Below, one piece after another: positions 2,549 to 57,337 of a DNA stretch of 64,000 nt. Under the pieces are notes generated by a model, which ran no database searches, was not told the DNA's origin, and saw only the letters and a program-made list of their open reading frames with translations. How positions within the stretch are numbered: position 1 is the first letter of the stretch; each line of letters starts with the position of its first letter. Source of the DNA: an uncultured Candidatus Saccharibacteria bacterium (lineage in GTDB: Bacteria; Patescibacteriota; Minisyncoccia; UBA6257; 1-14-0-10-40-38); assembly GCA_964543265.1 (NCBI GenBank), contig CAZIWN010000001.1, positions 232,977-296,976 on the forward strand, given 5' to 3'. A program made the translations under genes and the position numbers.

Positions 2549-3169
2549 TTGATATTTAACTTTATGTATCCAGAACCAATTAAGAAAATTTCTAAAATAT
2601 TATCAGAATTTCCCGGCATTGGCCCCAGACAAGCCATAAGAATAGCTTTTTATTTAGCCAACCAAGGAAAAAACCTTGCGAACAACCTAGAAGAAGCACT
2701 AGAAGAATTAGGACATATAAAAATCTGCAAAGAATGCTTTTCTTCTTTCGAATTATCTAAAGGTGAAAACGGCCTTTGTCATATCTGCAAAGACAAAAAC
2801 AGAAAAGACAATATTATAGCCATAATAGAAAAAGAAACTGATTTAATCTCTTTAGAAAAAACAAAAGAATTTAAGGGAAAATATTTAGTTTTGGGAGAAA
2901 TTTCAAAAGACGGCATATTAAAAGGTGAGCAAAAATTAAGATTAAACTCGCTAAAAGAAAGACTGAGCAGCAATCCAGACAAGATCGAAGAGATAGTTTT
3001 AGCAATTAATCCTGGAACCTTAGGAGATATCGAATCTTCTCTGTTATTTAATGAATTAAAAAACTTCACCAATAAAATATCTCGCCTCGGACGAGGGCTT
3101 CCAACTGGCGGAGAAATAGAATTTGCTGATGACGAAACACTAAAAGGTGCCCTAGAAAATAGAAGATAA
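2549..3169 (+). CDS. recR: recombination protein RecR
   Basis: HhH motif EFPGIGPRQAIRIAF. C4 zinc finger CKEC..CHIC. Toprim-like C-terminus. About 200 aa. Confidence 0.9.
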   Translation: MIFNFMYPEPIKKISKILSEFPGIGPRQAIRIAFYLANQGKNLANNLEEALEELGHIKICKECFSSFELSKGENGLCHICKDKNRKDNIIAIIEKETDLISLEKTKEFKGKYLVLGEISKDGILKGEQKLRLNSLKERLSSNPDKIEEIVLAINPGTLGDIESSLLFNELKNFTNKISRLGRGLPTGGEIEFADDETLKGALENRR

Positions 3170-3170
3170 T

Positions 3171-3197
3171 AAAATCAGGACTTAAGTCCTGATTTTA
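3171..3197. terminator. bidirectional intrinsic terminator between convergent recR and rplU
   Basis: Hairpin aaaatcaggacttaagtcctgatttt with A/T runs on both sides. Confidence 0.6.
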
Positions 3198-3201
3198 TTA
3201 A

Positions 3202-10127: not shown

Positions 10128-11036
10128 TTATAAAATTTCTAATGCTCTAAGCTTTGCCGATCTCGATCTTCTATTATTTAAAATCTCATTTCTACTTGGT
10201 GGAATTGGTTTTTTTGTCAAAATTTTACCCAATCCATCTTTTTCCATATTCTTAAATTCATTTTTAACAACTTTATCTTCAAGAGACTGAAACGAAACCA
10301 CCACCACCCTTCCGCCAGGTTTTAAAATATATTTAGAATCTCTTAAAACCTTTTCTATTGCCCCCAATTCATCATTTATAAATATTCTGAAAGCTAAAAA
10401 TGTTCTAGTTGCTGGATGAATGCGTCCCATCTCATAATTTCTTGGTAAAATCTTCTTAATCGCATCAACAAGTTCAAAAGTTGTTTCTATAGGCTTTTTC
10501 CTCTGTGTTTCATATATTGAATCTGCAATTTTTCTAGCAAATCTCTCTCCGCTATAGTCTCTTAAAATTTTTTCGATTTCATCCTTTTTCAATCTCCTTA
10601 AAGCATCTCTTAATGGTTCTTTAGAGTCCTCATAAGTCATTAAAAGCGGTTCGTCTCTCATAAAAGAAAATCCCCTTCCATAATCCTCTATTTCCGGAGA
10701 AGAAAATCCAAGATCTAATACCAACCCATCAGCTTTTTCAACTAATGGATTTATAAATGACTCCCCCAATTCAGAAAAATTTCCCTGCTTAAAAATTAAA
10801 TTTCCAGAAGCCATTTCACCGCTAAATCTATTTTTTCCATTCTTTATAGCTACAGGACTCAAATCTACCGCCAACACAGTTCCATTATCTCCAACAGCTC
10901 CCAAAAACTCCCTAGTATATCCACCCTCTCCAAATGTTCCATCAATTATAAAATCTCCTTTTTTTGGTTTTAGACAATCTATAACTTCTTTTAAAAGTAC
11001 TGGAATGTGAGGCATTGTTTTATATTCCCAACTCAC
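10128..11036 (-). CDS. rsmH: 16S rRNA (cytosine1402-N4)-methyltransferase RsmH (MraW)
   Basis: HIPVLLKEVIDCL start. SAM-binding fold. Immediately follows mraZ. Confidence 0.9.
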   Translation of the reverse strand: MSWEYKTMPHIPVLLKEVIDCLKPKKGDFIIDGTFGEGGYTREFLGAVGDNGTVLAVDLSPVAIKNGKNRFSGEMASGNLIFKQGNFSELGESFINPLVEKADGLVLDLGFSSPEIEDYGRGFSFMRDEPLLMTYEDSKEPLRDALRRLKKDEIEKILRDYSGERFARKIADSIYETQRKKPIETTFELVDAIKKILPRNYEMGRIHPATRTFLAFRIFINDELGAIEKVLRDSKYILKPGGRVVVVSFQSLEDKVVKNEFKNMEKDGLGKILTKKPIPPSRNEILNNRRSRSAKLRALEIL

Positions 11037-11451
11037 CCATCTTTTCAGCTATTTCATCCGACTGTGATTCAGTTTTTGATTTATACTCCTTCCAAGAAGA
11101 TTCATCCCAAACTTCAATTCTATTAAACAATCCAGTCACAACTGCGTTTTTAGATAATCCAGCGTATTGCCTTAAATATTCTGGAATCAATATTCTTCCC
11201 TGAGTATCAACCTCAACATCAACAGCTCCAGACATCATAAGTCTCACAAAAGCCCTGGAATTAGCTTGAGCAAGAGGTAATTCTATAAGCTTGGTGGCCA
11301 ACTTATCCCACTCTGCTTTTGAAAATATAAATAAACACCTATCTAATCCCCTGGTAACAATCGCTCCAGAAACTAAACCCTTCCTGAACTTAGCAGGAAT
11401 TGCCATTCTACCCTTCAAATCTAAACTATGTGAATACTCTCCAATAAACAT
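11020..11451 (-). CDS. mraZ: transcriptional regulator MraZ
   Basis: MFIGEYSHSLDLKGRMAIPAKFR. Duplicated MraZ domain. 143 aa. Confidence 0.9.
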   Translation of the reverse strand: MFIGEYSHSLDLKGRMAIPAKFRKGLVSGAIVTRGLDRCLFIFSKAEWDKLATKLIELPLAQANSRAFVRLMMSGAVDVEVDTQGRILIPEYLRQYAGLSKNAVVTGLFNRIEVWDESSWKEYKSKTESQSDEIAEKMGELGI

Positions 11452-13151: not shown

Positions 13152-13180
13152 ATAATCTAAATTAAAGTATAGTAAATATA

Positions 13181-13211
13181 AAAAATCTGTCCAAATTTGG
13201 ACAGATTTTTT
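13181..13211. terminator. bidirectional terminator
   Basis: aaaaaatctgtccaaatttggacagatttttt. Confidence 0.6.
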
Positions 13212-13231
13212 ATATAAGACAGATTTCAATC

Positions 13232-15266: not shown

Positions 15267-15323
15267 AGATGAATTTTATAATTGAAAGTATAAAAAAAAT
15301 GAGACCGATTGGTCTCATTTTTT

Positions 15324-15617
15324 TTACAACCCAGGTTCTACTCTTGGCGCCCTAGTCGATCCTTCTGGTTCGTCTATTTTAAGATTAACTCTTGCGTTGT
15401 GTTTTATTCCCACAATTCTTAAAAGGGATCTAATCGCTTTAGCGGTTGCCCCTTGTCTACCCACAACTTGACCCATATCTTCGGGATGAACTTTTAAAGT
15501 TAAAAGAACCCCCATCTCGTCAACTTTTCTATCGATTTTGACATCATCTGGATGATCAACAATCGCCTTAACTAAACTTTCTAAAAATTCTTGGTCTGCT
15601 ATTCTCATTTTCTTCAA
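15324..15617 (-). CDS. KH-domain RNA-binding protein (YlqC/UPF0109 family)
   Basis: GVLLTLKVHPEDMGQVVGRQGATAKAIRSLL. Conserved position between rpsP and trmD. Confidence 0.8.
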   Translation of the reverse strand: MKKMRIADQEFLESLVKAIVDHPDDVKIDRKVDEMGVLLTLKVHPEDMGQVVGRQGATAKAIRSLLRIVGIKHNARVNLKIDEPEGSTRAPRVEPGL

Positions 15618-20056: not shown

Positions 20057-20491
20057 ATGGACAGCGCAACCGCACCTCTTTCGACGACCCGTTTCGATCG
20101 GACCGGCTTCCAGTTCGACGTGAATTCCGAGATGCAAGAAAGCGTCTTCGACCTCGTCGAAGGCGCCCTGAATCGTGACGGCGAAGTGCGGGCAGAAGGA
20201 ATGCCCGACGAGATCGCCACGATCTCGGAAGCGCACATCTTCGCGGGCGAAGAAGGTCGAGTTCCGGCCACGCTCGAAGAAGCGATGAGCTTCGTCGAGC
20301 GCAACACGACAATCGCAGGTCACTGCGTGGTCGTAGCAACCGGAACCCAGACCTTCCACGGCGGAGAGTTTTTCGTCTTCGCGATTCGCAAGCACGAACG
20401 CGCAGACAAGACCGGCTTCGTCGTGACGACGATCCCGCTCACGAGCACGTGGGCGCGCCACTACAAGGTGGCGCACCTCTCAGCCACCTGA
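20057..20491 (+). CDS. hypothetical acidic 144-aa protein in a GC-rich (~60% GC) islet
   Basis: Only this frame and strand has a promoter, SD and downstream terminator. The three overlapping minus-strand ORFs are high-GC artefacts. Confidence 0.5.
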   Translation: MDSATAPLSTTRFDRTGFQFDVNSEMQESVFDLVEGALNRDGEVRAEGMPDEIATISEAHIFAGEEGRVPATLEEAMSFVERNTTIAGHCVVVATGTQTFHGGEFFVFAIRKHERADKTGFVVTTIPLTSTWARHYKVAHLSAT

Positions 20492-20504
20492 CCTGACCCC
20501 CCAA

Positions 20505-20566
20505 GCCCCGACACTAGAGCCTCTCGCGCACCGCGCGGAGCTCTAGCTGTCGGGGCTTCTTTTTTT
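20505..20566 (+). terminator. long GC-rich compound hairpin plus T-run after the GC-islet ORF
   Basis: gccccgacactagagcctctcgcgcaccgcgcggagctctagctgtcggggc then ttcttttttt. Confidence 0.7.
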
Positions 20567-23917: not shown

Positions 23918-23958
23918 AACTGGCGGAAGCATCTTGCGTCATTCCGCCAGTTTTTTTC
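23918..23958 (+). terminator. intrinsic terminator after dnaE
   Basis: ctggcggaagcatcttgcgtcattccgccag then ttttttt. Confidence 0.7.
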
Positions 23959-23971
23959 TCCAACCTCATTA

Positions 23972-24172
23972 TTATTCAATAGAGGGCTCAGCAACAGTAG
24001 CACGGTCAAGAGCTCGTCTCACCCTTCTTCGAACATCATTTGCAATTTCATCTTCCCTGTTTCGACAGGGATGACAGTTAATAACGTGACTAAGTAAAGA
24101 ATAAAGACCAGATCTCAAATCAGCGCTCGCGCGATGCCACAGTTGATCACACTCTGAATCTGAAGGACTCAA
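23972..24172 (-). CDS. hypothetical 66-aa ORF in a mildly GC-elevated spacer (weak)
   Basis: ORF only. No homology recognised. Confidence 0.2.
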   Translation of the reverse strand: MSPSDSECDQLWHRASADLRSGLYSLLSHVINCHPCRNREDEIANDVRRRVRRALDRATVAEPSIE

Positions 24173-24289
24173 GACTCGCCTCCTTCACAATGAAGCCTAG
24201 AGAATATAAAAATATTAATTCCCAAACCAGCACCATGTCAATAATTGAATAAAATTCACTTTAAATATAGAATTTATAAAACGAAAAAT

Positions 24290-26035
24290 ATGGAAAAATC
24301 ACAAAAAATAGAAGGAATTCGACACTCTCTAGCTCATTTATTAGCCGCTTCTGTCTTAAAAAAATATAAGACCGCCAAGCTCGGCATCGGCCCAGCAATT
24401 GAAAATGGTTTTTATTATGATATCCAATTTAAAAATCCGATCACCGAAACCGATCTGGCAGAATTTGAAAAAGAAATTAAAAACTTAATTTCTCAAAAAT
24501 TAGAATTTAAAGGAGAAAAAATAACCCCCCTCAAAGCCAAAAAGCTTTTTGCTGGCCAGAAATTTAAACTCGACCTAATAAAAGAATTCGCCAAAGACAA
24601 AAAAGATTTAACCATCTACAAAACCGGAGAAGTCTTCACCGATCTCTGCAAAGGCGGACACATTAAGAATACTTCCGAAATTAATCCAGAAGCTTTTAAA
24701 CTAACCCACACAGCCGGAGCTTATTGGAGAGGAGATGAAAAAAATCCCCAACTTACCAGAATTTATGGATTAGCTTTCGAAAACAAAGAAGAATTAGAAA
24801 ATTATATTAAGCAACTAGAAGAAGCAAAGAAGAGAGATCATAAAGTTTTAGGACCTCAATTAGATCTTTTCACTTTTTCCGAGCTTGTTGGTCCTGGTCT
24901 TCCTCTTTGGACTCCAAAAGGAACTATTCTTAGAGACGAATTAGATAATTTCATCTGGCAATTAAGAAAAGAACGCGGTTATGAAAGAGTTGATATTCCC
25001 CATATCACGAAAATAACGCTTTATGAAAAAAGTGGTCATTGGGATAAATACAAAGATGATCTCTTTAAAATTAAAACTCGCGAAGATCACATGTATGCTA
25101 TGAAGCCCATGAACTGCCCGCACCATGCGCAGATTTATGCCCGCAAACAATGGAGCTACAGAGATCTCCCTCAAAGATATTCTTCTACTACAAAAGTTTA
25201 TAGAGACGAACAGTCTGGTGAGCTTGCCGGCCTTTCAAGGGTTCTTTCTATAACTCAAGATGATGCTCACGTTTTTTGCAGAAGCTCTCAAGTTAAAAAA
25301 GAAATGAGTAGCGTCTGGGATATTATAGAAACTTTCTATGGAACTTTTGGATTTAAACTAACTCCAAGACTTTCTCTTAGAGATCCAAAAAACAAAGAGA
25401 AATATTTAGGAACTCCAAAGATGTGGGAAGAAACCGAAAATGAATTAAGAGTATTAGTTAAAGAAAAAGGATCGAGTGCCGAAGAAGCTTTAGGAGAAGC
25501 CGCGTTTTATGGTCCTAAAATAGACTTTATGGCTAAAGATTCGTTGGGCAGAAGCTGGCAGGTTGCCACAATTCAACTAGACGTTAATCAACCAGAAAGA
25601 TTTAATCTTTCCTGTATCAATGAAGACGGCAAAGAAGAAAGAATCGCCATGATCCACGCCGCCATTATGGGTTCTATTGAGAGATTTTTATCAGTTTTAA
25701 TCGAACACTATGCTGGAGCCTTCCCTCTTTGGCTCTCCCCTGTTCAGGTTAGAATTTTGCCAGTTGGTGAAAAATTTTTAAATTACGCCAACGAAATAAA
25801 ATCAGAGTTAATTAAAAATAATATCCGCGTAGATTTGCCAGAGCCAAATGAAACACTCGGCAAAAGAATTCGTGCTGGAGAAATGGAAAAAATCCCAATG
25901 CTTTTAATCATCGGCGAAAAAGAAGTTACAGCCAAAAATGTAACCATGCGCCGTTACTCCGATAAATCGCAAAAAGAAATGACTATTAGCGAACTAGTTA
26001 GTACCATCCAAAAAGAAGTTAAAGAAAAGAAATAA
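24290..26035 (+). CDS. thrS: threonyl-tRNA synthetase lacking the N-terminal TGS domain
   Basis: Editing-domain motif RHSLAHLLA. Class II catalytic core. C-terminal anticodon-binding domain. ATG at 24290 preferred over the TTG at 24245. Confidence 0.85.
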   Translation: MEKSQKIEGIRHSLAHLLAASVLKKYKTAKLGIGPAIENGFYYDIQFKNPITETDLAEFEKEIKNLISQKLEFKGEKITPLKAKKLFAGQKFKLDLIKEFAKDKKDLTIYKTGEVFTDLCKGGHIKNTSEINPEAFKLTHTAGAYWRGDEKNPQLTRIYGLAFENKEELENYIKQLEEAKKRDHKVLGPQLDLFTFSELVGPGLPLWTPKGTILRDELDNFIWQLRKERGYERVDIPHITKITLYEKSGHWDKYKDDLFKIKTREDHMYAMKPMNCPHHAQIYARKQWSYRDLPQRYSSTTKVYRDEQSGELAGLSRVLSITQDDAHVFCRSSQVKKEMSSVWDIIETFYGTFGFKLTPRLSLRDPKNKEKYLGTPKMWEETENELRVLVKEKGSSAEEALGEAAFYGPKIDFMAKDSLGRSWQVATIQLDVNQPERFNLSCINEDGKEERIAMIHAAIMGSIERFLSVLIEHYAGAFPLWLSPVQVRILPVGEKFLNYANEIKSELIKNNIRVDLPEPNETLGKRIRAGEMEKIPMLLIIGEKEVTAKNVTMRRYSDKSQKEMTISELVSTIQKEVKEKK

Positions 26036-26068
26036 GATCATAAAATTTAAAACGGCCATCTAGCCGTT

Positions 26069-27526
26069 TTAAATTTTTAACAACTCTTCTCTAAAAATCT
26101 TCTGCAATATCCCCGGATTCCCCTTTCCTTTTAAAGCACCCATCGCACGCCCAACCAAAAACTGCAAAGCATTTTCTTTTCCTTTTTTGAAGTCTTCTAT
26201 AGCTCTCGGGTTTTCTGCTAATATTTTATGCGCCAAAAGCTTTAATTCGTTTTCATCAGAAACCTGTTCCAATCCTAGCGAGCTTAAAAGATTATGTGGA
26301 TCTTCTCCCGTTTCAAACATTTTTTTCAAAATATCTTTAGCCGATCTCGAAGAAACTTTATTATGAGAAATCATTTCTATCAGATCAGAAAAGTTTTCTG
26401 GATTTATTTTAATATCGCCGAATCCGAATTTCGAAGCCGACATCAAACCCATTAAATCAGATGTTAAATAGTTATAAATCAGCTGAATTTCTTTTTTAGT
26501 ATTAATATCGTCCTCTGCTTCAATTTCAGACACAGATTCTTCAAAAAAACTCGCCAATGCCAAATCTTGGATCAGAATATTCGCCTGCTCTTCATTTAAA
26601 CCATATTCCTTTTGGAATCTCAATCTTTTAATACCTGGTAATTCTGGAATACTAGCCTTAATTTCTTTTAAACTTATTTTAGATAAATCGAGTGGCGGAA
26701 TATCTGGATCTGGAAAATATCTATAATCATGGGCAGATTCTTTTGATCTTTGCGAAAAAGTCGTTCCAGTATTTGCATCCCATCCACGAGTCTCCTGAAC
26801 AACCTTACCCCCCGATTCTAAAACTCCCTCTTGTCTTTTAAGTTCATATTCAATCGCACCCCTAACAGATGAAAAAGAAGCAATGTTTTTTACCTCAACC
26901 TTTGTTCCAAATTTAAATTCGCCATTTACAATCGTCCCTAAACTCACGTTAGCCTCAACCCTCATTAAACCACGCTCCATATCCGCATCAGATGCCCCCA
27001 AGTATTTCAAAGTTAATTGTAGCTCTTTTGCAAATTCCGATGCCTGTTCGGCACTTTTAATATCTGGTTCGGTTACCAATTCCATTAAAGGCACTCCGGC
27101 TCTATTATAGTCAACAAAAGACACCTCATTGCCATTCTTATCCTTCCCGTGCTCCAAGCTAGCCGTATCCTCTTCTAAATGAATTCTAGTGAGTTTTACA
27201 CCCCTTAAAACCCCTCCAAATACTAAAGGAAGGTCGTACTGTGATATCTGATAAGCCTTGGGTATATCTGGATAAAAATAATTTTTCCTATCAAATTTTG
27301 AAAATTGAGGAATATCTCCCTGAAGCGCCATTCCTATTTTTAAAACCAATTCCACCGCTTTTTTATTTACCACCGGCAAAGTCCCTGGGTGAGCTAAACA
27401 AATTGGACAAGTATTTTTATTCGGCTCAATATTAAAAGTCTCATTAAGACACGAGCAAAACATTTTCGTTTTTGTTTTTAATTCAGCGTGTATTTCAAGA
27501 CCGATGGTTGGAATGTATTTAGACAT
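26069..27526 (-). CDS. gatB: Asp/Glu-tRNA(Asn/Gln) amidotransferase subunit B
   Basis: MSKYIPTIGLEIHAELKTKTKMFCSC. C-terminal GatB/YqeY domain. Start trimmed to MSKYIP. Confidence 0.9.
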   Translation of the reverse strand: MSKYIPTIGLEIHAELKTKTKMFCSCLNETFNIEPNKNTCPICLAHPGTLPVVNKKAVELVLKIGMALQGDIPQFSKFDRKNYFYPDIPKAYQISQYDLPLVFGGVLRGVKLTRIHLEEDTASLEHGKDKNGNEVSFVDYNRAGVPLMELVTEPDIKSAEQASEFAKELQLTLKYLGASDADMERGLMRVEANVSLGTIVNGEFKFGTKVEVKNIASFSSVRGAIEYELKRQEGVLESGGKVVQETRGWDANTGTTFSQRSKESAHDYRYFPDPDIPPLDLSKISLKEIKASIPELPGIKRLRFQKEYGLNEEQANILIQDLALASFFEESVSEIEAEDDINTKKEIQLIYNYLTSDLMGLMSASKFGFGDIKINPENFSDLIEMISHNKVSSRSAKDILKKMFETGEDPHNLLSSLGLEQVSDENELKLLAHKILAENPRAIEDFKKGKENALQFLVGRAMGALKGKGNPGILQKIFREELLKI

Positions 27527-27628
27527 AAAATCGTTATGTAGAAGTATAGAAAAAAAACAAACCCTAAACAAGTAAAATAAAAAACAAACCCGGTCGCCTG
27601 ATTTCTCAAGCTACCGGGTTTTAGATCA

Positions 27629-27654
27629 GATCAGCGGATTCTCACCCGCTGATC
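27629..27654. repeat. GC-rich stem-loop with 9-bp perfect stem (gatcagcgg ... ccgctgatc)
   Basis: Read directly. Sits at the left edge of the GC-rich islet. Confidence 0.7.
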
Positions 27655-27924
27655 ACGGACAGATGCATGCATCTGTCCGCCACCGAAAGAAGACCTGCCC
27701 TGACGAATCGTCGTCGTCCGATCGGGACGAACAGAGCACCTGAGACACCGACCAGCCACGAGCCGTCGGCTACAGGCCGGACAGTTGTCCCCTCGAGGGT
27801 TCACGAACGCCACCGGCGTCAGAAACGCCTCGAACGGCACCCGCCTCTCTGGACGCTTCTTCTCGTCGCACGGAATCGCCCCGCCACCAGCAAGCGACGC
27901 CGCAAGCATTCCCACAAGCATCAT
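27631..27924 (-). CDS. small (97 aa) protein with hydrophobic N-terminus and CxxC..CxxC zinc-ribbon, in a ~62% GC islet
   Basis: Strong SD GGGAGGAG 8 nt before the ATG. CPACS...CLRC pair. The opposite-strand ORFs are considered artefacts. Confidence 0.4.
   Translation of the reverse strand: MMLVGMLAASLAGGGAIPCDEKKRPERRVPFEAFLTPVAFVNPRGDNCPACSRRLVAGRCLRCSVRPDRTTTIRQGRSSFGGGQMHASVRDQRVRIR
27657..27678. repeat. 22-bp perfect palindrome ggacagatgcatgcatctgtcc
   Basis: Read directly. Centre is TGCATGCA. Confidence 0.8.
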
Positions 27925-28064
27925 CTGCCTTCTCCTCCCGTTAAAGAAAAGTGCTAAAAAACATTATAAAACTTTTAAAGATATAAATCAAAATTAAATT
28001 TGCCTTAGAAAAAATATAGGCATACCATTATTTCAGCACCACAAAACCAAAAAAGGAGAATGTT

Positions 28065-28865
28065 ATGGCAAAAATCTTCATTGCCAACATTCCCGTTTGG
28101 CATGGAGGATTGGTTAAGGTTCTTAGGGGGCTTGGAATTCACGACAAACTAATTGTGATTAGTGCAGAAATAGCAAATGGCCTTGCCGGAGAAGAGATTG
28201 ACGAAAGAAGACTTCCTGATTCAGAAGCTGTTCACTGCGCCAAGCAACACGTCTGGTCCAGGGTGGAACTACTTACTCTTAAAAATATAGAAAAAATAAG
28301 AGATGACAAAGATATTGCCGTAAGCGCCACAGACGACGAAGTTACAAGGCGAGTTATAGCAAAAGTGTTTCCCAAGGCAAGGATCGCTTGGCTTAACACC
28401 TTCTCAAAAGCAGAAAGTGTAGGCAGAGACGCTGTGGTAATAGTCGAAGAAGCATCCGTTCAAGTAAGAGAAATTCGACTAATGATGCTTGCCGAAGCTC
28501 AAGCCAAGCTTTCCCCGCTCAAAGACCTTCTCTCTGGCGCAGTTCTATCCTCAGAAGATGGTCGATTCTTGGGCAAAGCTGGCATCAGACACCTACCCAC
28601 CGAATTCGAGCCATTTCTTGACGACAATCGCCTCTCCATCGCCCATCCGATCGCAATACTCGTTGCCCTGTCTGCCAGAAACGGATTGTCTATTATGGGA
28701 TCGACAATTTACTCCACCGATTTTCCTTGCACCACTTGCGCTAAGATCATAGGTGTTTCCGGAATAAAGACTGTTTTTGTAAAATACGGAAACAATACAA
28801 GAAGCCTGCAAATACTCCGCGCCTTTGGAGTAAAAGTAATAAGAATTGTGTCCAAAAAAGACTAG
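28065..28865 (+). CDS. cytidine/dCMP-deaminase-fold protein with atypical active site (HPI instead of HAE; PCTTC retained)
   Basis: C-terminus AHPIAILVAL...FPCTTCAKIIGVSGIKTVFV aligns to the dCMP deaminase HAE...PCxxC...GIK..VY pattern. About 45% GC. Confidence 0.45.
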   Translation: MAKIFIANIPVWHGGLVKVLRGLGIHDKLIVISAEIANGLAGEEIDERRLPDSEAVHCAKQHVWSRVELLTLKNIEKIRDDKDIAVSATDDEVTRRVIAKVFPKARIAWLNTFSKAESVGRDAVVIVEEASVQVREIRLMMLAEAQAKLSPLKDLLSGAVLSSEDGRFLGKAGIRHLPTEFEPFLDDNRLSIAHPIAILVALSARNGLSIMGSTIYSTDFPCTTCAKIIGVSGIKTVFVKYGNNTRSLQILRAFGVKVIRIVSKKD

Positions 28866-28905
28866 TGCCAAGTTACCGCATGCGGTAACTTGGCACTGTT
28901 TTTTT
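28864..28905 (+). terminator. 34-bp perfect palindrome plus T-run (terminator of 28065..28865)
   Basis: agtgccaagttaccgcatgcggtaacttggcact then gttttttt. Confidence 0.75.
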
Positions 28906-29158
28906 ACTGCTGACGAAAGTATCCGGCTGGCCTGGTGTGAGAGCCATCTGGTGGACGCCTTGGTGGAGTATATCCACAGCCATTACACATCCGTAGACGA
29001 GCATCAATATTTGTAGATTTGCATTTTGGACAACAATCAACAGAGATAGCAGTCGATACAGCCGGCTTCTTCTCCGAAGACTTACATCCAGTAATACAAC
29101 AACCATTTCGGTTGAGTTCCCGAAACGCTCTGCAAATTTTACAAAGTCCTGTAGCCAT
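28904..29158 (-). CDS. Cys-rich 84-aa zinc-ribbon-like protein
   Basis: 14 Cys (CKIC, CC..GC, CCPKC, CNGCG). Strong SD aaggggagg before the ATG. Preferred over the overlapping 113-aa frame. Confidence 0.4.
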   Translation of the reverse strand: MATGLCKICRAFRELNRNGCCITGCKSSEKKPAVSTAISVDCCPKCKSTNIDARLRMCNGCGYTPPRRPPDGSHTRPAGYFRQQ

Positions 29159-29297
29159 CTGACCTCCCCTTGTCTAAGAAAGAATTCCTTGTTCTGCAGT
29201 TTAGGATAAAACAAAACACCAAACTCTTACAAGCCCTCAATCATTACAAAAATATTATAAACATTGATTATCATACTTAATAATGTAGAATCGTAAT

Positions 29298-29972
29298 ATG
29301 GCACTATCAGACAAGAGAATATTGGAAGCAAAAGAAAAAGGAGATATTTTAATTCATCCTTTTGATAAAAAAAACTTAGCCACTTCAAGCTACGACGTTA
29401 CTTTAGGCGAATTCTATTTTCGCGAACAAATTCCAGACAAATATCACAATAAAATCTATAATATTTGGGACAAAAACCACATCGACAGAGTTTGGGGCGT
29501 AAATTTTCACAAAGCTATAACCGCCAAAGAAGCTTTTAAAAATTTTAATTTTGAATTTAACAACTTAAAACCAACCGAAAAAGTAATTCTTTTAGAACCA
29601 GGGGAAACAATTTTAGCTCACACCAACGAATTTATTGGTGGTCTAAACCACATCACCACCATGATGAAAGCTCGTTCTTCTCTTGGAAGAAGTTTTATAG
29701 AAGTTTGTAAATGTGCCGGCTGGGGCGACGTTGGCTACGTTAATCGTTGGACCATGGAAATTACTAACAATTCAAAAAGTTATATTATTCCACTCGTAGT
29801 TGGCAGAAGAATAGCTCAAATCATTTTCTTTGAAACTGGTGAAATTTTAGGCAGCGACTACACAAAAACAGGAAAATATAACACGACAACAGATTTAGAA
29901 AAATTAAAAAAAGAATGGAATCCATTTATGATGCTTCCAAGATTAGATAAGGATCGAGATATTAAAAAATAA
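29298..29972 (+). CDS. dcd: dCTP deaminase (Dcd/dUTPase superfamily)
   Basis: N-terminus MALSDKRIL..SSYDVTLG and core SSLGRSF..GWGDVG..WTMEITN align to E. coli Dcd. Confidence 0.75.
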   Translation: MALSDKRILEAKEKGDILIHPFDKKNLATSSYDVTLGEFYFREQIPDKYHNKIYNIWDKNHIDRVWGVNFHKAITAKEAFKNFNFEFNNLKPTEKVILLEPGETILAHTNEFIGGLNHITTMMKARSSLGRSFIEVCKCAGWGDVGYVNRWTMEITNNSKSYIIPLVVGRRIAQIIFFETGEILGSDYTKTGKYNTTTDLEKLKKEWNPFMMLPRLDKDRDIKK

Positions 29973-29990: not shown

Positions 29991-30818
29991 ATGAAAATTT
30001 ATAACGATGTTCTAAAAAAAATCTTAGAAAACGGCGTTGATAGAAAAGGTAGAAATGCTATGACTCGCGCACTTTTTGCAATTCAAATGCGTTTTAACTT
30101 AGAAGATGGATTTCCAGCCGTAACCACTAAACAATTAGCGTTTAATGGAGTAAAAAGCGAATTACTTTGGTTTTTAGAAGGTAGTAATAGCGACGAAAGA
30201 TTAAAAGAGATTTTAGGAAAAGATCGCACAATTTGGACCGATAATGCTAATGCTCCATATTGGATAGATAAAGCAAAATTTCCAGGAGATCTCGGAAGAA
30301 TTTATGGAGTTCAATGGAGGCACTGGAAAAGAACAGACGGAAAAGAAGTAGATCAAATAGCTCATCTTATTAATAAACTAAAAACAGACCCAAACGATCG
30401 TCGCCTGGTAGTTACCTCCTGGAATCCAGGAGAATTAGATCAAATGGCCCTCCCTCCTTGTCATATGATTTTTCAATTCTTTGCCGCTAATGGAAAACTT
30501 TCTTTACACATGACTCAACGCAGTTGCGATATGTTTTTGGGGGTTCCGTTTAATATCGCCTCTTATTCGCTGCTCTTAGCCATGATTGCGCAAGTGGTTA
30601 ACATGACTCCACACGAGTTTGTAATCACCCTCAATGATGCTCATATTTATCACGAACATTTTGATGCAGTAAAAGAACAATTATCCAGAGAACCAAAAAA
30701 ACTGCCAAAACTTTGGCTAAATCCAGAAATTAAAGATATAAATAAATTTACAATGGATGATATTAAGCTTGTAGACTATGAACACTATCCAACTATCAAA
30801 GCCAAAATGATAGTTTAA
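29991..30818 (+). CDS. thyA: thymidylate synthase
   Basis: QMRFNLEDGFPAVTTK, catalytic PPCH, RSCDMFLGVPFNIASY. Asn at the dUMP-specificity position. Confidence 0.9.
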   Translation: MKIYNDVLKKILENGVDRKGRNAMTRALFAIQMRFNLEDGFPAVTTKQLAFNGVKSELLWFLEGSNSDERLKEILGKDRTIWTDNANAPYWIDKAKFPGDLGRIYGVQWRHWKRTDGKEVDQIAHLINKLKTDPNDRRLVVTSWNPGELDQMALPPCHMIFQFFAANGKLSLHMTQRSCDMFLGVPFNIASYSLLLAMIAQVVNMTPHEFVITLNDAHIYHEHFDAVKEQLSREPKKLPKLWLNPEIKDINKFTMDDIKLVDYEHYPTIKAKMIV

Positions 30819-30822
30819 AATA

Positions 30823-30851
30823 AAAAAACCGCCATCTCGGCGGTTTTTTTA
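30823..30851. terminator. bidirectional terminator between thyA and rplK
   Basis: aaaaaaaccgccatctcggcggttttttt. Confidence 0.7.
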
Positions 30852-30853
30852 TT

Positions 30854-31279
30854 TTAGTCTTTAACCTCAATACCCATATTCTTTGCTGTTCCTGCGATAA
30901 TTCTCACAGCAGCATCGATATTATCCGTATTTAAATCGGCTTTCTTCTTTTCAGCTATATCCCTTAAATCAGCTTTAGTAACTGTTCCAACTTTTGTTTT
31001 ATTTGGAACTCCAGATCCTTTTTCAATCTTAGCTGCCTTCTTAAGCAAAGATGAAGCTGGAGGGGTTTTTAATATGAAACTAAACGATCTATCTTCATAA
31101 ATAGTGATAACTGCTGGCACAACATCTCCAACCATTTCCTTGGTTTTATCATTAAATTCCTTACAAAAACCAGCGATATTAATACCCTGTGGTCCGAGAG
31201 CTGTTCCTATTGGTGGTTGAGGAGTAGCCTTACCTGCCTCTATTTGAAGTTTTATTACTGCCTTAATTCCTTTTGCCAT
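30854..31279 (-). CDS. rplK: 50S ribosomal protein L11
   Basis: [35 protein letters not shown]. Start trimmed to MAKGIK. Confidence 0.9.
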
Positions 31280-37585: not shown

Positions 37586-37595
37586 CAAAAATAAA

Positions 37596-37632
37596 AACAA
37601 GACGGCCTCGTGCCGTCTTGTTTTTATTTATT
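37596..37632. terminator. bidirectional terminator (after tRNA-Asp on the plus strand and gatCAB on the minus strand)
   Basis: aaaaacaagacggcctcgtgccgtcttgttttt. Confidence 0.7.
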
Positions 37633-57301: not shown

Positions 57302-57337
57302 ACAAAAAAAACACCCCATATGGGGTGTTTTTTTGTT
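57302..57337. terminator. bidirectional terminator between convergent genes
   Basis: aaaaaaaacaccccatatggggtgtttttttg. Confidence 0.7.

Follow-up and report, generated by a model that had tools for sequence, protein, structure and literature searches.

A GC-rich patch in an AT-rich CPR genome: an old, vertically inherited, fast-evolving gene cluster with a probable pseudo-deaminase

The GC-rich patch analysed here, which lies in the AT-rich genome of a CPR bacterium, is a gene cluster of long standing that has been passed on vertically and evolves fast, and its recent import is unlikely. The account that we consider probable as a whole is that the segment is resident in the conserved thrS-gatB-...-thyA-rplK neighbourhood, of which it forms an accessory part, in a Paceibacteria-like CPR lineage, that its three transcription units descend vertically and change rapidly, that its deaminase-fold protein has become a pseudo-enzyme, and that its palindromes are RNA hairpins. 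Separate units are proposed for the genes of a 97-aa protein (ZnR97), a 266-aa protein (deam266) and an 84-aa protein (Cys84). An earlier note on this DNA (the window, a stretch of 64,000 nucleotides) had ascribed the patch, together with the 20057 islet, to a common foreign source. This claim was supported in part: the two islets do share atypical traits, but a foreign source is not supported, as the genes are syntenic in relatives, their dS is near that of the flanks, and searches yielded neither a donor nor a phage, plasmid, integrase or att-like repeat. The case calls for caution in island calling, as a compositional island in an AT-rich genome need not be a recent import.

In the window, the islet has thrS, gatB, dcd and thyA as neighbours, and its genes are syntenic in L002 and L005, and partly in L008, three related Paceibacteria-like lineages. 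Around canonical members of the deaminase family in other CPR genomes, the order is thrS-gatB-...-deaminase-...-thyA-rplK-nusG-gyrB, and the window deaminase is found in exactly that slot, the same as that of the canonical member P0015. L011, with the order thrS-gatB-CTP_transf-deaminase-HIT-DHFR-thyA-rplK-nusG-secE-gyrB, has the same backbone order as the window. By its position, the deam266 protein is the orthologue here of a dCMP deaminase family with two domains, a cytidylyltransferase-like N domain and a deaminase domain. An assembly chimera was ruled out by an independent Logan assembly (L001), which is 100% identical over the islet as well as over gatB and the deaminase gene, and by conservation among relatives.

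Amino-acid identity between the lineages amounts to 91-97% for the flanking housekeeping genes and to 41-56% for the islet genes, with dN of 0.02-0.06 and 0.36-0.58, and dN/dS of 0.03-0.05 and 0.2-0.35, respectively. The dS of the islet genes (1.4-1.9) is equal to that of the flanks (0.66-1.3) or up to about twice as high, these being rough estimates from the four lineages known, with dS near or partly at saturation. Since dS lies near that of the flanks while amino-acid divergence is 10-20 times that of the flanking housekeeping genes, vertical inheritance with fast evolution is indicated. A contig scan for further relatives returned the L008 genome only, and two metagenome scans returned none. 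In L008 the ZnR gene is absent and the Cys gene carries an in-frame stop, which suggests that both are dispensable. Further variable small ORFs led by Shine-Dalgarno (SD) sites are located between housekeeping genes.

Signs of mobility were sought and not encountered at this locus. Homologues or DNA of the islet were absent from phages, plasmids and viral contigs in blastn, tblastn and exact-pattern scans, on which grounds a phage, plasmid or viral origin was rejected. No integrase or transposase was found near the islet and no tRNA adjoining it, and the only flanking or att-like direct repeats were AT-rich ones at chance level. The locus thus lacks the integrase, repeats and tRNA target of a genomic island, and it is present and syntenic in relatives.

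The elevated GC reported earlier is genuine across 27600-27900 (59-65%) and in ZnR97, but it does not extend to the third codon positions of Cys84. Gene GC is 62.6% in ZnR97, 44.8% in deam266 and 45.9% in Cys84, against 35% in the host, and the corresponding GC3 values are 0.64, 0.41 and 0.32, against 0.28 (sd 0.044). The excess in Cys84, whose GC3 is host-like, resides mostly in codon position 2 and comes from amino-acid composition; in ZnR97 the GC is flat over codon positions. The proposed resemblance to the 20057 islet in composition and ribosome-binding sites was borne out by raised GC content, GC-rich codon usage and strong SD sites, the last being present in all four islet genes (4/4) against 2/39 long ORFs (9/65 under a generous test) of an SD-poor host. 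Elevated GC3 and strong SD sites are common to both islets and are kept in relatives. Syntenic, AT-rich homologues had been named as the sign of a native origin; the homologues are indeed syntenic, but their GC content is high as well.

A GC3 of 0.6-0.74 has been retained by lineages at least 1 synonymous substitution per site apart, and thus some force maintains it. As neutral amelioration over the observed divergence should erase such a signal, composition alone does not identify a relic of import. GC-rich codons and strong SD sites would rather be conserved, maintained properties of these genes than a fading import signature, and selection may be what keeps the GC high. GC-biased conversion at recombination hot spots was considered and is unsupported, the clearly mosaic thrS and dcd having host-like GC3 (0.29-0.30). 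Translational selection for C-ending codons is no straightforward fit either, with mainly G or T at third positions of ZnR97 and many G-ending codons in p144 of the 20057 islet.

A rather unlikely alternative, though one of some substance, is ancient horizontal acquisition, in which GC-rich, SD-led, moron-like units (ZnR97, Cys84 and p144) would have come from one GC-rich, SD-using source before the lineages split, and been kept since. The GC3 of 0.64-0.74 against 0.28 in the host would fit such a history, as would the distribution of SD sites (4/4 islet genes, 2/39 long ORFs), the promoter and terminator that each cassette has of its own, the status of all cassettes as orphans, their variable presence (ZnR is missing from L008) and the further small SD-led ORFs scattered variably amid housekeeping genes. 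Prophage morons are likewise self-contained sets of promoter, SD, small ORF and terminator, with GC unlike that of their neighbours, placed between conserved genes. However, protein, phage, plasmid and viral searches gave neither donor nor homologue, integrase and flanking repeats were not found, dS is comparable to that of the flanks, neutral amelioration should have wiped out the GC3 signal, and the deaminase is orthologous, by position, to a gene native to CPR genomes. Unlike morons, the islet cassettes were found without a prophage or mobile-element context and without homologues in phage collections, and they are vertical across species.

The composition could also reflect a gene class of its own in this SD-poor lineage of 35% GC, made up of small orphans that evolve fast (ZnR97, Cys84, p144 and possibly others) and in which selection actively maintains GC-rich codons and strong SD sites. 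Such genes might follow a separate, SD-dependent expression regime suited to GC-rich, highly structured mRNAs, possibly with an RNA-level function, and ZnR97 and Cys84 might be partners of the pseudo-deaminase, which keeps its zinc. We put this forward tentatively and consider it quite unlikely in this full form. In a genome that otherwise hardly uses SD, the strong sites of these few genes make them a tractable case for the study of CPR translation initiation.

The ZnR97 ORF (27631..27924) had been described correctly as to length, GC content (62.6%) and the presence of paired CxxC motifs, but it lies on the minus strand, and the hairpins thought to precede it are inside its 3' end (codons ~82-97). 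Its product is basic (pI 11.4), with a hydrophobic N-terminal segment, a basic linker and a zinc ribbon of the type CPxC-x8-CxxC (CPAC-x8-CLRC); a moderate hydropathy peak suggests that the N-terminal segment may be a membrane anchor. The SD, GGGAGGAG (27932..27939, minus strand), is retained in L002 as GGGAGGGG and in L005 as GGGGGGAA, and the predicted sigma-70-type promoter (27963..27991, minus strand; TTGATT, a 17-nt spacer and TATAAT, 10/12 matches) is within a divergent-promoter spacer block conserved in both. L002 and L005 carry orthologous ORFs that agree with it in start, SD and cysteine pattern, with C48, C51, C60 and C63 invariant across the three species. Conservation is confined to the sense-frame translation, and dN/dS is 0.31-0.35. 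Identity follows the order position 2 > position 1 > position 3 when the window is compared with L002 or L005, and in the L002-L005 pair position 1 slightly exceeds position 2.

The Cys84 ORF (28904..29158), on the minus strand as reported, encodes 84 amino acids, but the cysteines number 10 and not 14. The protein is basic, with two zinc-ribbon-like CxxC...C/CxxC pairs, and its ORF is preceded closely by AAGGGGAGG, with the SD GGGGAGG at 29163..29169 (minus strand), also in agreement with the earlier description. Its orthologues keep the CxxC...C and C...CxxC arrangements, the C-terminal tail TPPRxPPxDxxxxPAGY[FY]R is conserved, and dN/dS is 0.20-0.27; Cys84 would be a small double zinc-ribbon protein expressed from its own transcription unit. 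The conservation of start, SD and cysteines, the restriction of conservation to the sense frame and the codon-position pattern indicate that ZnR97 and Cys84 are coding. As far as can be judged from their sequences, both are real, clade-restricted zinc-ribbon orphans: a profile search of 5.8 billion proteins gave no relatives beyond the clade, no Pfam or NCBIfam family was found for the small cassette proteins, and no curated zinc-ribbon family matched significantly (Pfam DZR, E 0.11; bL32/eL37 in PDB, E 0.04-0.14). The two zinc-ribbon micro-proteins have mostly been missed by automatic annotation; the source records carry no annotation of the ZnR97 ORF.

This missing annotation is one of several points in favour of a rival view, namely that the 62%-GC stretch 27586-27960 is a structured non-coding RNA gene, for instance a regulator of the adjacent deaminase-like gene, and that the 97-aa ORF is accidental. 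The DifV sRNA and the DcdV deaminase of Vibrio offer an analogy for an RNA regulating an adjacent deaminase. The stretch divergently adjoins the deaminase-fold gene, its complete transcript folds much more strongly than shuffled versions do (z = -6.05), long antisense ORFs are open too, and its GC is flat over codon positions. The fold signal, however, stems from three 3' hairpins, with z of only -1.2 to -2.4 in the ORF body, and the RNAalifold consensus is weak (covariation term -2.2 kcal/mol, many broken pairs). Moreover, the start codon, the SD and the four ribbon cysteines are kept although the DNA has diverged beyond blastn detection, conservation is limited to the sense translation, position 3 is the least conserved in 3/3 pairs and position 2 the most in 2/3, and dN/dS is about 0.3. 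Against Rfam 15, the GC islet gave no match at gathering thresholds and chance-level ones only at E<=10; with ARAGORN also empty, known RNAs (RNase P RNA, tmRNA, SRP RNA, 6S RNA, a riboswitch or an intron) were rejected. We regard an RNA gene as distinctly improbable. A specific conserved RNA structure as the cause of the high GC was rejected on the weak z of the ORF body and the scant RNAalifold covariation.

The deaminase-fold gene was recognized correctly in the earlier note, with its 266 codons and ~45% GC (28065..28865, plus strand; 44.8% GC), and its AGGAG SD (28054..28058, plus strand) is conserved in all four species. Residues 1 to ~112 of this two-domain protein adopt a cytidylyltransferase-like fold (HIGH-type Rossmann), and residues ~130-262 a dCMP-deaminase fold with the three-layer alpha/beta/alpha arrangement of the CDA fold. 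PF00383 is matched with 28.2 bits (gathering score 25; E 1.9e-6), and PDB profile matches are dCMP deaminases (E 6e-9 to 3e-6). The zinc ligands H194, C222 and C225 are invariant in 50/50 aligned sequences, and full-length homologues number 255 family representatives at E<=1e-10. The protein is collinear over its full length with an unnamed two-domain 'long dCMP deaminase' family (~275-300 aa, in CPR and other bacteria; ComEB / T4 Cd / cyanophage S-TIM5 type, PF00383), with which it shares the H/C/C zinc ligands, PCxxCA, an N domain with the PVxHxG motif (as PVxHxGY) and a slot near thyA. It differs from this family in its identity, 26% against 37% among the other members, and in the absence of the upstream CTP_transf_like partner gene.

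The catalytic residues set deam266 further apart. The HAE glutamate, the proton shuttle, is required in cytidine and dCMP deaminases. Its position is occupied in deam266 by Ile196, and in the relatives by Thr, Ala and Val, so that HAE has become HP[I/T/A/V] in 4/4 clade members. All of the ~148 other family members checked keep H-x-E, with Glu in 46/46 other aligned members. About 11 residues have been deleted before the HxE helix, and deam266 has lost 14 of 38 family-conserved columns, including Asn174 (N174I), FLRWD and DWWR; GDP, present in the family, is lost as well. Since the catalytic Glu and about 14 other family-conserved positions are gone, the clade protein is probably a pseudo-enzyme. 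On the other hand, 84 columns are invariant within the clade, including the pocket motifs GIRHLPxExEPFL and RLSIxHP, so that an altered instead of a lost activity is possible.

The opposite case would be that deam266 is still active, through another general base or in another nucleotide-modifying reaction, perhaps as a fast-evolving anti-phage nucleotide-depletion effector acting with the small zinc-ribbon proteins. The invariance of zinc ligands and many pocket residues within the clade, together with purifying selection (dN/dS of 0.16-0.27), would agree with this, and fast evolution beside variable small neighbours recalls defence loci. Like DcdV-type anti-phage dCTP deaminases, deam266 joins an N-terminal nucleotide-binding domain to a C-terminal dCMP-deaminase-like one, and a structured transcript divergently adjoins it, though here the transcript appears to be protein-coding. 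Unlike them, it has an N domain that is cytidylyltransferase-like and not kinase-like, lacks the catalytic Glu and stands in a housekeeping context. With the anti-phage dCTP deaminase models, agreement is partial and limited to a stretch of ~35 residues around PCxxC: NF041025 aligns with residues 203-238 at 29.7 bits, far under the cut-off of 400 and short of the full length with its N-terminal kinase-like domain, and the PADLOC dCTPase model gives 32.6 bits over 35 residues, on which a defence system was rejected. Furthermore, the replacement of Glu differs per species (I, T, A, V), which argues that no substitute catalytic side chain exists at that position; loss also extends to the conserved Asn and to the Gly of the loop, the neighbourhood is one of housekeeping dTMP synthesis, the protein is a positional orthologue of ordinary dCMP deaminases, and no other defence genes were found nearby. 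An active enzyme is, in our estimate, highly improbable.

We return to the pseudo-enzyme. Having lost a segment of the substrate loop and about 14 positions conserved in the family, besides the catalytic glutamate, deam266 of this clade is most likely no deaminase now. What survives, under purifying selection of reduced strength, may be a zinc-containing protein that probably binds nucleotides and has a regulatory or scaffolding function. Provision of dUMP precursors to ThyA would then fall to the neighbouring dCTP deaminase (dcd), a replacement suggested by gene adjacency. A catalytically inactive deaminase-fold subunit is known in ADAT3/Tad3 of the eukaryotic tRNA A34 deaminase, which works on tRNA in a heterodimer with the active paralogue ADAT2. 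The two proteins are not closely related; the ancestry of deam266 is dCMP deaminase and not TadA, and no active paralogue partner was seen here. What makes the case worth attention is that, in a reduced CPR genome, the catalytic Glu of a housekeeping dCMP deaminase has disappeared in situ, with zinc site and purifying selection retained; a probable pseudo-deaminase beside an alternative dCTP-deaminase route to dUMP bears on the rewiring of nucleotide metabolism in ultra-small symbionts.

As for the palindromes, all those reported earlier are present. In the predicted intrinsic terminator of the ZnR97 transcript (27586..27621, minus strand), a 16-bp stem with interruptions precedes UUUGUUUUUU on the minus strand; the element would insulate gatB, which lies downstream in the same orientation, and L002 and L005 possess an equivalent hairpin and U-run. 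Within the last ZnR97 codons lies the 9-bp perfect stem with an 8-nt loop seen at the left edge (27629-27654, minus strand), which is lineage-specific and absent from L002 and L005. The perfect 22-bp palindrome (27657-27678) proved to extend to 24 bp (27656-27679, minus strand; 12-bp stem), and is likewise lineage-specific and situated in the 3' end of ZnR97. Unlike intrinsic terminators, it has no U-run and is inside an ORF, and thus is not a terminator by itself; it and the 9-bp element would be additional 3' hairpins placed before the actual terminator of ZnR97.

The perfect 34-bp palindrome that ends the deaminase gene (28864-28897, no strand assigned), between the convergent deam266 and Cys84, is a predicted bidirectional, Rho-independent terminator. 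A T-run follows the stem on both strands, and a consensus terminator scan scores both. The hairpin folds with z = -7.7 and has equivalents in L002, L005 and L008; over the four species its stem is 100% paired, with compensatory double changes in 9/15 pairs, a degree reached in 0/500 shuffles, while slid controls collapse. It resembles known bidirectional intrinsic terminators in its GC-rich perfect hairpin, A-run and T-run flanks, convergent genes and compensatory stem, and differs from the usual intrinsic terminators in an unusually long stem (15-17 bp) and in conserved CATG loop and CCG/CGG closing pairs. The long perfect palindromes would thus act as RNA hairpins.

That they are instead DNA-level sites bordering an inserted element (att-like, operators of a dimeric regulator, or restriction-modification GCATGC sites) is a very remote prospect, already refuted, if weakly; the palindromes behave as terminators and not as att sites. 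The idea could draw on the perfection of both palindromes (0/100 shuffles for either), on their common GCATGC centre, noted earlier, which occurs nowhere else in the 64 kb although 6.3 +/- 3 such sites would be expected, on their position near the edges of the GC-elevated region and on the CCGCATGCGG core kept in 3/4 species, but the 34-bp arms vary between species with pairing kept (the 9 compensatory pairs), which argues that structure and not a recognition sequence is selected, T-runs occur on both strands of an element placed exactly between convergent stop codons, the 24-bp palindrome is missing from relatives that still have the gene, the two are unrelated beyond the 6-nt centre, each is unique in the window, and neither a recombinase nor direct repeats nor copies in phages or plasmids were found. 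Other perfect or long palindromic terminators are common across the window.

The window has a GC content of about 35% and carries dnaE, thrS, gatB, dcd, thyA and rplK, a housekeeping set typical of CPR (Paceibacteria-like) genomes, while GC in the islet reaches 59-65% at 27600-27900 and 42-52% elsewhere. Most sequence features listed in the earlier note were present: a 9-bp stem-loop (27629-27654), a perfect palindrome (27656-27679), the 97-aa zinc-ribbon ORF ZnR97 (27631-27924, minus strand, preceded by GGGAGGAG), the 266-aa ORF of the deaminase-fold protein deam266 (28065-28865, plus strand), a perfect 34-bp palindrome (28864-28897) and the 84-aa cysteine-rich ORF Cys84 (28904-29158, minus strand, preceded by AAGGGGAGG). 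The left palindrome, described there as 22 bp long, is indeed perfect (27657-27678), but its real span is 24 bp; Cys84 contains 10 cysteines instead of 14; and because ZnR97 lies on the minus strand, the left-edge hairpins are located not ahead of this gene but inside its last ~16 codons.

It was also proposed that this islet and the one at 20057 (p144 gene) had a common foreign source. An atypical style is common to both, but we found neither a donor nor signs of mobility (no phage, plasmid or viral match for the islet, and no integrase, tRNA target or flanking repeat), and the islet genes are old residents. Close homologues of deam266 number only three among 5.8 billion proteins, and all of them (in L002, L005 and L008) share the neighbourhood p143-dnaE-thrS-gatB-[small ORF]-deaminase-[small ORF]-dcd-thyA-rplK-nusG-gyrB. 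AT-rich syntenic homologues had been named as a mark of native origin; syntenic homologues exist, but the gatB-deaminase islet has 58-65% GC in L002 and L005 too. Between the window and L002 or L008, amino acid identity is 91-97% for the housekeeping flanks, 41% for the ZnR protein, 54-56% for the deaminase and 55% for the Cys-rich protein. By the Nei-Gojobori method, flanks and islet genes gave dS of 0.66-1.3 and 1.4-1.9, dN of 0.02-0.06 and 0.36-0.58, and dN/dS of 0.03-0.05 and 0.2-0.35, respectively; dS is thus of the same order, whereas amino acid divergence of the islet genes is 10-20 times higher. The simplest reading of these sequence comparisons is vertical inheritance under much weaker purifying selection rather than recent import. 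An ancient import of small cassettes, to which the shared atypical style could be ascribed, seems to us rather unlikely.

GC3 of ZnR97 is 0.64 (0.59-0.60 in the relatives) and that of p144 is 0.74 (0.56-0.60), compared with 0.28 (sd 0.044) for the host; deam266 reaches 0.41, and the GC excess of Cys84 comes mostly from codon position 2. In a simple two-state amelioration model, no ancestral GC3 leaves 0.6 after neutral decay at the divergence of L005. Therefore, the composition is being maintained, or the genes moved after the species split; such later movement is hard to reconcile with their deep divergence and their fixed position. An assembly artefact is ruled out by L001, assembled independently from another data set and 100% identical across gatB, the islet and the deaminase gene.

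The host genome is SD-poor and hardly uses Shine-Dalgarno sequences: an SD core precedes the first ATG in only 2 of 39 window ORFs of at least 200 aa (9 of 65 by a generous test). SD sites of at least 5 nt precede all four islet genes (Fisher 4e-5 and 6e-4), and some other small window ORFs also have one. In many window genes, the stretch directly adjoining the start codon is AT-rich or TATAAT-like. Between dnaE and thrS lies another small SD-led cassette, the third of its kind; it consists of a 66-aa TTG-start ORF (23972-24172, minus strand, ~45% GC) with an AGGAGG SD, a TTGACA/TAATAT promoter (~24210-24242) and a hairpin terminator (~23925-23965). The same slot in L002 holds a different ORF of 109 aa.

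The score of deam266 against Pfam PF00383 is just over threshold, and its PDB profile matches are dCMP deaminases. An exhaustive HMM search returned a family of 255 representatives at E<=1e-10 (1,729 at E<=0.001), labelled just 'dCMP deaminase' in source records; most of the best matches align over their full length, about 275-300 aa. The canonical (HAE) long enzymes have a separate CTP_transf_like gene upstream or overlapping, and one is fused to such a domain. This conserved pair of a cytidylyltransferase-family and a deaminase gene, seen at L009 4887-6377 and L011 5450-6834 and in protein P0029, is apparently an uncharacterised module; its partner gene is missing from the window clade, where it has been lost. 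Since the canonical gene of L011 occupies the same slot (thrS-gatB-...-thyA-rplK-nusG-secE-gyrB), deam266 is its positional orthologue and, judged by position, native. H-x-E is retained in every other family member examined; in all four proteins of the clade, the residue after HP is instead I, T, A or V. These four also lack ~11 residues ahead of the HxE helix, and of the 38 columns conserved across the family 14 are lost in them, among these N174I, FLRWD and DWWR; the zinc ligands and PVxHxG are retained. The protein is under purifying selection, with 84 columns invariant within the clade. Overall, these proteins belong to a known enzyme family but are a novel form of it, with degenerate catalytic features. 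A zinc-dependent ligand-binding, regulatory or scaffolding function may have been retained, and dcd, as gene adjacency suggests, could supply the dUMP route to ThyA.

The genes deam266 and Cys84 converge, and the 34-bp palindrome sits exactly between their stop codons, with a T-run after the stem on both strands and a terminator score in both directions. An equivalent hairpin occupies this position in all four species; in the alignment every cell pairs, and 9 of 15 pairs changed on both sides, a covariation reached in 0 of 500 shuffles and collapsing in slid controls. Such double-sided changes show that the hairpin is what selection preserves rather than any recognition sequence, and the element fits a putative bidirectional intrinsic terminator. 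An att or operator site is argued against by this compensatory pattern. ZnR97 has a putative terminator of its own at 27586-27621, where a U-run comes directly after the hairpin; L002 and L005 have equivalents. Two additional hairpins, the 9-bp stem-loop and the 24-bp palindrome, are specific to the window lineage and lie in the non-conserved C-terminal tail of the ZnR97 ORF. The islet terminators are ordinary, though unusually long. The 64 kb contain just two GCATGC sites, each at a palindrome centre, and 3 of 4 species keep the CCGCATGCGG core in the terminator at the deaminase gene; the common centre is possibly a coincidence, since ~1 in 64 pairs would match by chance. Long perfect or near-perfect palindromes (A-run/GC core/T-run) recur at window gene ends (3167-3200, 13176-13215, 15291-15326, 26042-26077, 30816-30856, 37589-37629 and 57305-57334), consistent with bidirectional terminators. 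The 13176 and 27656 palindromes have the arm GGACAGA/TCTGTCC in common.

Both zinc-ribbon genes flanking deam266 are unannotated orphans, found in this clade only. For ZnR97, neither Rfam nor ARAGORN gave a match in the region. The whole transcript folds with z = -6, a signal due to the three hairpins at its 3' end; for the body of the ORF, z is only -1.2 to -2.4, and RNAalifold found little covariation. ORFs in L002 and L005 share its position, strand, M-[IM]-L-x-G start, strong SD and promoter (TTGATT-17-TATAAT). The ribbon cysteines (CPxC-x8-10-CxxC, n=4) and a D-x-CP motif are invariant despite DNA beyond blastn reach, the sense-frame translation alone is conserved, and conservation is lowest at codon position 3 in each of the three pairs (highest at position 2 in two). 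These features favour a coding gene. The product is very basic (pI 11.4), and at its N terminus a hydrophobic segment precedes a basic linker, which suggests that the protein is anchored in the membrane there and has its zinc ribbon in the cytoplasm. In RNAalifold consensus, a pyrimidine tract, CUUUUCUUU, in the 5' UTR (27940-27960, minus strand) can pair with the SD and might perhaps sequester it. L008 (Baikal Paceibacterota) has no ZnR gene, its gatB-deaminase spacer being only 134 bp (L008 9867-10001).

Cys84 is conserved in L002 and L005, with two CxxC-type knuckle pairs, a TPPRxPPxDxxxxPAGY[FY]R tail and dN/dS of 0.20-0.27. In L008, an in-frame TAG interrupts the Cys-rich gene (10810-11130) at the conserved C-[NS]-[GS]-C position, and conservation extends past it; possible causes are a nonsense mutation, recoding and a sequencing error.

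In the 20057 islet, p144 is a 144-aa acidic orphan gene (20057-20491, plus strand, SD GGGGAAAAG) with a terminator hairpin at ~20503-20558 and no match in Pfam, NCBIfam, PADLOC, PHROG or phage searches. It is conserved upstream of dnaE (80% aa identity in L002, 53% in L008; dN/dS 0.19-0.39), and its mRNA folds far beyond shuffles (z = -5.4; -3.6 in L002, -2.4 in L008).

Three further observations concern the surrounding genes. The window dcd (dCTP deaminase; 29298-29972, plus strand) is inverted relative to L002 (11236-11892), L005 (11234-11890) and L008 (11225-11881) and 48-51% identical to them, their mutual identity being 89-93%, which suggests replacement or inversion in the window lineage. 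L005 lacks thyA between dcd and rplK and has there a 120-aa ORF of unknown function (L005 11897-12589). The window thrS (24290-26035) is mosaic, with 66% identity to L002 and L008 and 79% to the more distant L005; ThrRS of L002 and L008 are 92% identical, and window thrS GC3 is host-like (0.30). This mosaicism is evidence for allele exchange within the neighbourhood.
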